DNA of 64,000 nucleotides from a virus (lineage: Duplodnaviria; Caudoviricetes), in IMG/VR virus record IMGVR_UViG_2916441648_000002, positions 1 to 64,000 of that record. One strand, given 5' to 3'. A program made the translations under genes and the position numbers. Positions 29,448-31,783 of this stretch are shown one piece after another (position 1 is the stretch's first letter; every line of letters begins with the position of its first letter). The notes below the pieces were generated by a model. That model was not told the origin of the DNA, ran no database searches, and worked only from the letters and a program-made list of their open reading frames with translations.

Positions 29448-29671
29448 GACTCGACTCCATAACGCCCGTTCAGGCGTCCGATTACGCTGTTGAACATCAC
29501 CAGACTTACGCCCATCGGTTTTACCTTCTCGTGGTACTCCTTAAGAATCGGAGGTACAACGACGTTCCAGCTTGGCTTCGGCTTCTTCTTCAGGGCTTTT
29601 TTAATGGCATCAGAGCATTGACGGGCTACATCACGCACAGCGTTTTCCTGCTCGGTTGATAGCTTCTTCAC
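29444..29671 (-). CDS. Hypothetical protein (75 aa)
   Basis: ATGA-type coupling on both sides. Confidence 0.7.
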   Translation of the reverse strand: MKKLSTEQENAVRDVARQCSDAIKKALKKKPKPSWNVVVPPILKEYHEKVKPMGVSLVMFNSVIGRLNGRYGVES

Positions 29672-30633
29672 GCAACCTCCAAGTAAGCTCGAATGAATTC
29701 AGCCGCGGCTTGTGCGTTTATGGCGTTACCATAGCCTTTGAGTCGGCCGACGCGGTTGCTGCTTGCCACTCTTGCCACCCCGGGCTCGACTCGTCCCATG
29801 CGTGCGGCAGCCCCATCAACCAGCGGGAATGTGCCGGGTTCAACTGGACGCCATTTGCCATCTCGACAAAAGAGCCAGTCCGCATCTCGCCAAAAACCGT
29901 TAACCTCAAGGGCCCGCATGTGTACGCCTGGCGGGGTAGCTGATCCAGTCTGTCCTTTCCATCCCGCTGCGCTGTCATTCCCGCCGAGTCCTTCCAGTCG
30001 CGTGAGGTTGGTGTCACCCATGCCGCCAGCACTGCAAAGTCCTGAAGGTTTGGCTGACGGCCAGCCTCCTTCCTCGCTATTACCTTTTTCCAGTCCTGGT
30101 AACAGTTTTTGACGTTGCTCGCTAATGGACTCGGCCACCCAATAAGCCCGCTCTCTGATGTGCGGAGCACCGATGCCCGCTGACGTAAACGGCACAAGCC
30201 CGAAGGCGTAGCCCATTCCTTCCAGATCTGCCTGTACAAGGTCGAACCATGTGTTTGCGTTACCGCTTGCAACCTGTTCGCCAAAGACATGCTGAGGCCT
30301 GCGCTCGCTGATGAGCTGGAAGAAGTGTGGCCAAAGGTGCCGCTCGTCAGCAAACCCATCTCCTTTGCCTGCCGCGCTGAAAGGCTGGCACGGGCAGGAG
30401 CCAGTCCAGACTGGTTTATCGTCAGGCCATCCGGCGAGGCGCAAGGAATGAGACCAGACGCCAATTCCGGCGAAGAAGTGGCACTGCGTGAATCCTCGCA
30501 GATCGTCAGGTGTGACATCTTCAATACTCCTTTCATCAACTTCGCCAGGTGCAATGTGACCGTTAGCGATCAGGTTACGCAGCCACTGAGCTGCATAGGG
30601 ATCAATTTCGTTGTAATAAGCCGAGGATTTCAT
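29668..30633 (-). CDS. C5 cytosine DNA methyltransferase, main (alpha) polypeptide
   Basis: Motif I FFAGIG, motif IV GSCPCQPFS, motif VI GEQV, motif VIII PHIRER, motif X GYGNAI; no recognisable motif IX. Confidence 0.88.
   Translation of the reverse strand: MKSSAYYNEIDPYAAQWLRNLIANGHIAPGEVDERSIEDVTPDDLRGFTQCHFFAGIGVWSHSLRLAGWPDDKPVWTGSCPCQPFSAAGKGDGFADERHLWPHFFQLISERRPQHVFGEQVASGNANTWFDLVQADLEGMGYAFGLVPFTSAGIGAPHIRERAYWVAESISEQRQKLLPGLEKGNSEEGGWPSAKPSGLCSAGGMGDTNLTRLEGLGGNDSAAGWKGQTGSATPPGVHMRALEVNGFWRDADWLFCRDGKWRPVEPGTFPLVDGAAARMGRVEPGVARVASSNRVGRLKGYGNAINAQAAAEFIRAYLEVA
29718..30518 (-). CDS. Nested alternative-frame gene (266 aa), putative methyltransferase beta polypeptide
   Basis: AAGGAG (30527-32) 8 nt before ATG 30518; encodes WPSP/WVTP..RDWKD and motif IX-like QLNPAHSRWLMGLP. 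Confidence 0.7.
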   Translation of the reverse strand: MSHLTICEDSRSATSSPELASGLIPCASPDGLTINQSGLAPARASLSARQAKEMGLLTSGTFGHTSSSSSASAGLSMSLANRLQAVTQTHGSTLYRQIWKEWATPSGLCRLRQRASVLRTSESGLIGWPSPLASNVKNCYQDWKKVIARKEAGRQPNLQDFAVLAAWVTPTSRDWKDSAGMTAQRDGKDRLDQLPRQAYTCGPLRLTVFGEMRTGSFVEMANGVQLNPAHSRWLMGLPHAWDESSPGWQEWQAATASADSKAMVTP

Positions 30634-31289
30634 GCTGCACGCTCCTGAGGTTTGCCCATTGGAACGGCTACTGCCGGGATAAGCTCAACAGCCGGTGATA
30701 GCGACTGATTTCCCCAGTGGTCCCAGCCTGGTGCACCGCAGCGGCTAAATAGTTCGATGCGCGGAACATCACCGTAAAGCTTCTCCAGACGGAAACGCGC
30801 CTCGGCGGGCTTTTGGCTGTGCTCACCGAGTGGACTGTAGATAACCTGCTTGATGCTGGCGCACTGGCGTTCGAGTCCATTCCCCCTGGTGGCGATCAGC
30901 AGGTCTTCGGTATTGGCTCGGGTGTAGTTCCCGCCGTTCATGCGGGTCTGTACGTTCAACAAGTCGAGGAAGTCGTAAAAGTCCTCCACTCCACCAGCCT
31001 GAAGTGCTTTGTTGATGTGCTGCTCTGCCAGAGGGTTGAACTTAACCCAGGTGAAGCCCTTCATCGTACGGACCTTAAAGCCCCATGCTTCAGACAGTTC
31101 AATCGCTTCGCGGGTATGCGTGCCGGTGAACCACATAGCCAGAACAGCATCATCAGCAGCAAGGTCCCAAACGGGGAGGCGTTTCATGTCGATAAGCTTC
31201 GTCGTGCCGTAGTGATTGGTGGCAGCGCCGTTACTTACTGTATTGCCATATTCCCAGGCTGGGTCAGCGTAAATCAGTGAGTATTTCAT
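30630..31289 (-). CDS. MT-A70-family adenine methyltransferase
   Basis: IYADPAW catalytic motif, LAMWFT, AWGF, FTWVK, EHSQKP. Confidence 0.85.
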   Translation of the reverse strand: MKYSLIYADPAWEYGNTVSNGAATNHYGTTKLIDMKRLPVWDLAADDAVLAMWFTGTHTREAIELSEAWGFKVRTMKGFTWVKFNPLAEQHINKALQAGGVEDFYDFLDLLNVQTRMNGGNYTRANTEDLLIATRGNGLERQCASIKQVIYSPLGEHSQKPAEARFRLEKLYGDVPRIELFSRCGAPGWDHWGNQSLSPAVELIPAVAVPMGKPQERAA

Positions 31290-31783
31290 CAGACGTTCCT
31301 CGCTCTGCCAGCAAGGCACCAGCCATCACCACATGGTTTAGCTCTCTGAACCATGCTCAGGCAGCGCTGGCGCTCATCCAGAATTTTTTCCCGCATCTCT
31401 TCGCTTTTGGAGCGGTTGAAGGCATCCATCAGGACCGTGGCGGCCCTCAGGAACAAACCCTTGTCAGATAATTCCTTGGCCTTCTCCATCATCGCAACGA
31501 CAGCAGGGTTTGGTGCGCTTTCCTGTTTTGGCTCAGGCATCACTTCGGCTTTTTCGACCGGGTAGCGCGGGACAATAGGCCCAATCGGACCAATTGGAGC
31601 TTTGGCGTAGTAGCGGAAGGTTGGACGTTCTCCACGGCGTTCTGCTCGTCCCAACATTGCCAGGCGGCATACCGCACGCTGAACACTGTGCAATTCATAC
31701 TCTGGCAGTGCTGCGGCGATCTCCTTATTCGTCATTCCAGGGTTATTGGCCACGAACAGTTGGATTGTTTTGAGAAAGCTCAT
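31289..31783 (-). CDS. HTH protein with PerC-like C-terminus
   Basis: NPGMTNKEIAAAL HTH; AKELSDKGLFLRAA; coupled to O-like gene. Confidence 0.6.
   Translation of the reverse strand: MSFLKTIQLFVANNPGMTNKEIAAALPEYELHSVQRAVCRLAMLGRAERRGERPTFRYYAKAPIGPIGPIVPRYPVEKAEVMPEPKQESAPNPAVVAMMEKAKELSDKGLFLRAATVLMDAFNRSKSEEMREKILDERQRCLSMVQRAKPCGDGWCLAGRARNV

Follow-up and report, generated by a model that had tools for sequence, protein, structure and literature searches.

A gene nested in a second reading frame of a prophage C5-cytosine methyltransferase gene: a candidate subunit of a two-chain enzyme

What completes a C5-cytosine methyltransferase whose gene seems not to encode the part of the enzyme lying between motifs VIII and X? 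This question is raised by a locus in a stretch of Caudoviricetes DNA of 64,000 nucleotides (nt), positions 1 to 64,000 of IMG/VR record IMGVR_UViG_2916441648_000002, here called the window. In this locus the gene of a catalytic chain (alpha) contains a second open reading frame (ORF), named beta, which is read in the +1 frame and has about 83% of the length of alpha. A first-pass annotation of the same DNA had proposed that the two ORFs encode the two chains of a single methyltransferase. Both ORFs are under protein-level selection, and the nested gene is not due to chance but is kept by selection. The best explanation for the locus, which is considered probable, is a two-subunit orphan C5-cytosine methyltransferase of the M.EcoHK31I type, with one DNA stretch read in two frames.

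The layout described by the first-pass annotation was confirmed from the sequence, with all its coordinates correct (Table 1). The catalytic signatures FAGIG (amino acids, aa, 54-58), PCQ (81-83), GEQV (118-121), HIRER (158-162) and GNAIN (302-306) can be read in alpha and were assigned to motifs I, IV, VI, VIII and X, respectively, motif IX being absent, as had been claimed. Their residues are invariant or almost invariant in an alignment of 103 sequences, G302 and N303 of motif X being invariant. The Pfam family PF00145 is found in alpha with 50.5 bits (cut-off 22), restricted to aa 76-168, and phrog_363 covers alpha over its full length. Beta lies wholly within alpha, as stated, and ends inside motif X, its TAA falling within the GNAIN codons. 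The strong Shine-Dalgarno (SD) sequence reported ahead of its ATG is likewise present, being composed of the alpha codons Glu34, Arg35 (AGG, 30531-30529) and Ser36 (AGT). Further in-frame starts exist upstream (ATG 30536 and TTG 30554).

Table 1. Location of the features of the alpha/beta locus, numbered from the first letter of the window
Feature	Positions	Strand	Remarks
Alpha gene (C5-cytosine methyltransferase catalytic chain)	29668-30633	minus	ORF of 321 codons; ATG 30633, stop at 29668
Beta gene (nested +1-frame ORF)	29718-30518	minus	801 nt, 266 aa; ATG 30518, TAA 29720-29718; wholly within alpha
Shine-Dalgarno-like AAAGGAG	30527-30533	minus	8-nt spacer, then ATG 30518
Dual-constrained stretch 1	30129-30392	minus	Beta core, about aa 43-130 (helix and beta-hairpin, GSTLY and W-K motifs), over alpha motifs IV-VIII
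Alpha linker, aa 170-243	29905-30126	minus	Unconserved, predicted disordered; +1 frame gives the variable W-x-T-P repeats of beta
Motif IX-like element, beta aa 225-238, QLNPAHSRWLMGLP	29805-29846	minus	Overlaps alpha RPVEPGTFPL
Alpha motif X, GNAIN, aa 302-306	29716-29730	minus	Beta TAA (29718-29720) inside
MT-A70 family N6-adenine methyltransferase gene	30630-31319	minus	Upstream of alpha; PF05063 at 1e-22

The length of the nested frame was compared with chance by shuffling the synonymous codons of alpha, keeping both its protein and its codon usage. A +1 ORF of the observed length was obtained with P = 0.003 in the window, and eight homologues gave values between 0.018 and less than 0.0005, while the +2 frame was never unusual. 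Moreover, both frames stay open in homologues, a check that the first-pass annotation had recommended. In a close set of 80 viral loci (alpha identity 65-95%), a +1 ORF of 270-345 codons is retained in 77 and an ATG equivalent to that at 30518 in all 80, alpha itself being broken in one. A distant set of 160 further viral loci was gathered by querying with two distant alphas. In every one of these loci the +1 frame is open across at least 70% of alpha (median 0.91), against a median of 0.18 of alpha length for the longest +2 stretch.

The same nested layout is found in isolate phages of Escherichia (N15 and K1H), Rhodobacter (RcMrWorf), Burkholderia (BcepC6B and vB_E228), Xanthomonas (PhiXhv-18 and FoX4), Vibrio (Baybae), Aeromonas (AeroV_348), Komagataeibacter (phiKX1) and Tunturiibacter (Tunturi_1). 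Diverse phages match in both frames at the same places with 35-50% amino-acid identity, and the similarity of beta to distant phages exceeds synonymous-shuffle nulls by 4 to 12 standard deviations. The +2 frame, intended as a control for this comparison, scores higher than its null as well (z 1.8-7.5), since nucleotides under dual constraint are themselves conserved; this control was therefore replaced by a regional synonymous-site test.

In this test, codon homozygosity at alpha columns with a conserved residue is set against the expectation from codon usage. The observed/expected ratio is 1.10 at alpha codons 1-33, ahead of beta, where nothing is encoded in the second frame, and again 1.10 at codons 34-80, over the unconserved leader of beta; it rises to 1.75 at codons 81-168, over the first core of beta, and to 2.26 at codons 244-275, over its second core and the motif IX-like element. 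In absolute terms, homozygosity over dual-constrained stretch 1 is 0.63 against 0.36 expected, compared with 0.40-0.42 against 0.36-0.38 over alpha 1-80. Since all regions of alpha have one phylogeny, relatedness cannot explain the contrast. The dual-frame codon constraint that the first-pass annotation had put forward as a test is thus present over both beta cores, the 5' part of alpha serving as internal control.

The internal start has been kept by biased codon choice as well. The codons at the D-E-R-S and D-V positions of alpha were counted in 224 loci, counts which are not phylogenetically independent but are consistent in direction. Arginine at the SD site is encoded by AGG or CGG in 67% of cases versus 33% gene-wide, and by AGG alone in 39% versus 8%; serine is encoded there by AGT or AGC in 71% versus 49%; and for the aspartate codon that supplies the ATG of beta, GAT makes up 92% of codons versus 42% gene-wide. 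These are precisely the codons that create GGAG and the +1 ATG, so that codon choice preserves the start inside alpha, as anticipated when conservation of the SD was first suggested as a check. The ATG itself is retained in 180 of these loci, and 145 of the 224 have an SD-like motif.

Depending on the region, the stronger conservation is found in one frame or in the other. Among 20 diverse homologues, alpha is conserved at aa 6-165, 246-275 and 296-315, and unconserved at aa 166-245, where its column identity is 0.06-0.24 and that of beta reaches 0.35. Beta, in turn, consists of a leader, a conserved core, a variable repeat region and a motif IX-like block; its leader is poorly conserved, the conserved part beginning about 42 residues past ATG 30518. 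Conservation thus switches frame, beta being the better conserved across the alpha linker and the motif IX-like block just downstream. Nevertheless, the linker is without stops in 65 of 65 diversity-filtered loci, against a median probability of 0.11 under a null in which the beta protein is fixed and its synonymous codons are shuffled. As the linker stays open against expectation, alpha is read through as one chain. Furthermore, loose W-x-T-P-like modules number from 0 to 6 in beta among 188 loci (three in the window), and the length of the alpha linker in the same loci (47-184 aa) correlates with module number (r = 0.73); the change in length of both proteins is thus due to the gain and loss of W-x-T-P modules.

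What alpha lacks can be judged from its AlphaFold2 model, built from the 103-sequence alignment. The predicted local distance difference test (pLDDT) score is above 90 for aa 1-170, 38-60 for the linker (aa 170-243) and 35-49 for aa 269-295; the helix and hairpin at aa 243-264 are moderately confident and the C-terminal helices have values of 76-96, the motif X helix being above 90. The top solved match is M.HhaI (Z 13.9, root-mean-square deviation 2.7), with 167 of the 327 residues of M.HhaI aligned, which fits the large catalytic domain alone. By this model, alpha has no variable (small) domain in its chain. Column identity, pLDDT and the half of M.HhaI that is aligned all agree in that the alpha chain lacks a target-recognition domain and motif IX between motifs VIII and X. 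The want of a folded or conserved variable region in alpha fits a nested chain that carries specificity.

Two peculiarities of the alpha chain may be described here in their own right. The order of its motifs seems to be permuted (aa 1-58; 30460-30633, minus strand): the N-terminus, YYNEIDPYAAQWLRNL...GEVDERSI, aligns with the part of C5 enzymes downstream of motif I (from position 25 of TIGR00675 and from residue 34 of M.HhaI onward), whereas FAGIG and its helix align weakly with M.HhaI 3-32 and are placed just some 25 residues ahead of PCQ. A segment resembling residues 34-60 of M.HhaI (motifs II/III) seems to precede motif I in alpha, unlike in the monomeric enzymes. Short fragments of alpha, compared with Pfam as a check on this order, gave no information either way. 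Moreover, about 16 clade-specific extra residues (RMGRVEPGVARVASSN), missing in most homologues, are found between the hairpin and motif X (aa 276-295; 29740-29810, minus strand). This insertion is predicted to be disordered (pLDDT 35-49), and in the other frame the tail of beta is here without its usual D-x-C-A-P-T-E ending.

The motif IX-like element is the most conserved block of beta, with a column identity of 0.86. It fits the pattern L-x-P-x5-L-M-G-L-P and is placed 27 codons ahead of motif X, and a strict form of the motif is present in the +1 frame of 143 of the 160 distant loci. The name motif IX, already given to it by the first-pass annotation, is used because of this pattern, this position and what alpha lacks; the pattern match stands, and comparison by hidden Markov models or by fold lends the name no support. 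Beta itself matches phrog_1008 (1.3e-21) and phrog_31772. In a search of 1.84 billion protein representatives its relatives number 9797 at E<=1e-3, of which 1260 reach E<=1e-30; many relatives have an identical start residue.

Taken together, a division of labour between the two chains can be proposed. Alpha would be the large catalytic domain with motifs I-VIII, joined to the motif X helix by a short hairpin and a disordered linker of about 75 aa, whose only role would be to keep the reading frame open. Beta would be translated in the +1 frame from the internal SD and ATG 30518, and would begin with an unconstrained leader of about 42 residues; after it come the conserved core, the variable W-x-T-P repeats and the motif IX-like element L-N-P-x-H-S-R-W-L-M-G-L-P. 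In this way it most likely supplies the small DNA-recognition domain missing from alpha, docking non-covalently as in M.EcoHK31I. We infer translation from 30518, binding to alpha and the setting of target specificity. Beta likely carries the variable region and motif IX, a role which we infer, since neither a Pfam family nor a solved fold was found for it.

Several observations weigh against this two-subunit explanation. No Pfam or NCBIfam family was found for the beta of the window or for any of 92 relatives; the beta profile had no match at E<=10 among PDB sequences, and a Foldseek comparison of the beta model with the PDB gave none at E<=0.001. A wide fold search with the same model reached at best Z 4.0, covering the helix-hairpin at 67-125 alone, which has no bearing on the small-domain question. 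When the beta profile was aligned to E. coli Dcm by hhalign, the motif IX-like block was put on the motif IV region of Dcm (probability 0.07). The beta model, built from 92 sequences, is itself moderate (mean pLDDT 64, predicted template modelling score 0.30): residues 1-45 are disordered, helix 70-89 and hairpin 95-117 are confident (pLDDT 80-91), and helices are seen around the motif IX-like element. In three of the 80 close loci a single TGA interrupts beta while alpha is intact. Finally, the literature on M.EcoHK31I assigns the target-recognition domain to alpha and nothing but motif IX to beta, whereas the corresponding region of the window's alpha is unconserved, disordered and covered by beta. 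The variable region of this alpha is an unconserved shadow of beta, and the nested chain probably carries the whole recognition part.

The other ways of accounting for the locus have different degrees of plausibility. Beta could be a real, selected protein that is overprinted on the gene of the methyltransferase and has an independent phage function, such as DNA binding or anti-defence. Such a function would suit the lack of detectable similarity, in sequence or in fold, between beta and the parts of C5-methyltransferases. It would also suit the middle of beta, which is built of repeats and does not resemble known target-recognition domains, and the continuation of the beta frame into other genes (N6/N4 methylase, Dam, HNH, polymerase) in some genomes. 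However, beta is strictly nested, and in none of the loci examined did it occur without an alpha gene; alpha misses exactly the part that C5 enzymes need between motifs VIII and X; the motif IX-like block occupies the usual place, about 27 codons ahead of motif X; and M.EcoHK31I is a working precedent for a nested methyltransferase subunit. An independent function is thus judged unlikely.

Much less probable still is a single polypeptide made by two programmed frameshifts (0, +1, 0), or else a frameshifted pseudogene or an assembly error, even though the better conserved frame does change from 0 to +1 and back to 0 along the gene and a product joined in this way would read as a standard single-chain enzyme (motifs I-VIII, variable region, IX and X). 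The unconserved alpha linker, open in all 65 diverse loci, speaks against it, as do the ATG and SD that beta has kept for itself some 350 nt upstream of any shift that would be needed, and the overlap of about 90 codons in which the beta core and alpha motifs IV-VIII are both constrained. The layout also recurs in independent assemblies and in isolate phage genomes, and no single chain with both beta and PF00145 was found, either in the beta relatives of more than 466 aa or in the ten long representatives that were scanned. The least probable account makes the nested ORF a by-product of composition and of the amino-acid content of alpha, with no functional protein. The composition of alpha alone does give long +1 open stretches, with a null mean of 100-170 codons, but the observed length exceeds this null, the similarity of beta to distant phages is far above shuffled sequences, synonymous constraint is confined to where the beta core lies, and the ORF has been retained in hosts of different composition, as in the case of Vibrio phage Baybae.

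An extension of the two-subunit explanation, which is offered tentatively and is rather doubtful, is that beta might be a repeat-built target-recognition subunit, in which the gain and loss of W-x-T-P modules would change or widen the specificity of the orphan methyltransferase. If this were so, these loci would rank with the largest phage families of dual-coding genes in which the overlap is long (about 800 nt) and on the same strand, and the alpha linker would be merely the other frame of beta. As regards the two-chain proposal as a whole, if it is true, thousands of genes of phages and prophages labelled 'DNA cytosine methyltransferase' are half enzymes, the specificity-determining half being unannotated or, in some records, called in place of alpha. 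This would affect the prediction of phage methylation targets, anti-restriction studies and any expression from the annotated coding sequence (CDS) alone. The locus is also a large and clean natural case of two conserved proteins on the same codons, useful for studying the evolution of overprinting and for testing gene finders.

The genes around the locus follow the order of a prophage early region: replication protein, a gene of unknown function, MT-A70 methyltransferase, alpha/beta, a small ORF, a protein with a LexA DNA-binding domain, RusA and a Rha/KilAC antirepressor. The stop of the MT-A70 gene overlaps the start of alpha (ATGA, 30630-30633, minus strand), and the two genes are probably translationally coupled. 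No restriction enzyme is encoded in the early region around alpha/beta, and no host Dcm was found in the window's own record (an 84-kb provirus). Alpha/beta is thus an orphan methyltransferase gene in a prophage, as the first-pass annotation had proposed, although its description of the design as rare does not hold: the layout is widespread, being common to thousands of phage and prophage genes. In the literature searched, no paper describing this phage family or the LNPAHSRWLMG motif was found. RNA libraries match only small shares of the stretch (<=0.15), all as contigs, which cannot show translation or starts.

The expectation that standard annotation would miss the second gene proved right for RefSeq, where PGAP calls alpha alone, as is also the case in a close Klebsiella phage record; it did not prove right for some GenBank records, since those of K1H and PhiXhv-18 each contain two nested CDS, both called DNA methyltransferases. 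Alpha-only calling is the rule in RefSeq, and the reverse error, in which beta alone is called and alpha is dropped, has also been made: in the FoX4 record the beta frame alone is annotated, as a hypothetical protein, and in two contigs with called beta relatives the gene caller took beta in place of alpha. In all three cases the start of alpha is left as an apparently non-coding gap of about 115 nt. In Komagataeibacter phage phiKX1 (1198-2847) the hairpin and motif X of alpha are separated by a very long insertion, and beta stops about 500 nt short of the end of alpha. Neither ORF is annotated in full in its GenBank record, which contains instead the last 203 codons of the beta frame, another short CDS on the plus strand and an ORF on the minus strand, each called a hypothetical protein. 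The beta frame of some genomes continues into the downstream gene, so that beta is joined to a methylase of the N6/N4 or of the Dam type, to an HNH nuclease, to a helicase or to a polymerase A domain; as these are mostly single sequences, some of the fusions may be lost stops.

Among known systems, the monomeric enzymes M.HhaI and M.HaeIII have the large-domain fold and motifs IV, VI, VIII and X in common with alpha, and differ in that the alpha chain is without the small domain. As to the arrangement of the genes, the embedded spanin genes Rz/Rz1 of phage lambda are a case in which one gene lies wholly within the +1 frame of another and the products act as one complex. They differ from the present locus in their unrelated function, in their much shorter overlap and in not having two conserved protein cores on the same codons. 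The subunit genes of M.AquI, a two-subunit C5-methyltransferase, are not known to be nested. M.AquI is split within the variable region, motifs IX and X standing together in the small subunit (PMC3404938); in the window, by contrast, motif X is part of alpha, and 801 nt are common to both genes.

The closest likeness is with M.EcoHK31I of E. coli HK31, a C5-methyltransferase of two polypeptides with the recognition sequence YGGCCR, in which alpha has motifs I-VIII and X but not IX, and beta, encoded wholly in another frame of alpha, bears motif IX (Lee, Kam and Shaw 1995, as described in PMC2836561 and PMC3404938). Silent removal of the beta starts leaves its alpha inactive, and methylation returns when beta is provided in trans (PMC2836561). 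The alpha of the window, compared by description, likewise has motifs I-VIII and X without IX, and its beta is likewise nested, in another frame and under selection. M.EaeI, an isoschizomer of M.EcoHK31I, is of the same two-polypeptide kind. M.EcoHK31I belongs to a restriction-modification system, whereas the gene of the window is a prophage orphan. The nested two-chain design of C5-methyltransferases was thus already known from M.EcoHK31I; in the window, the nested chain is much larger.

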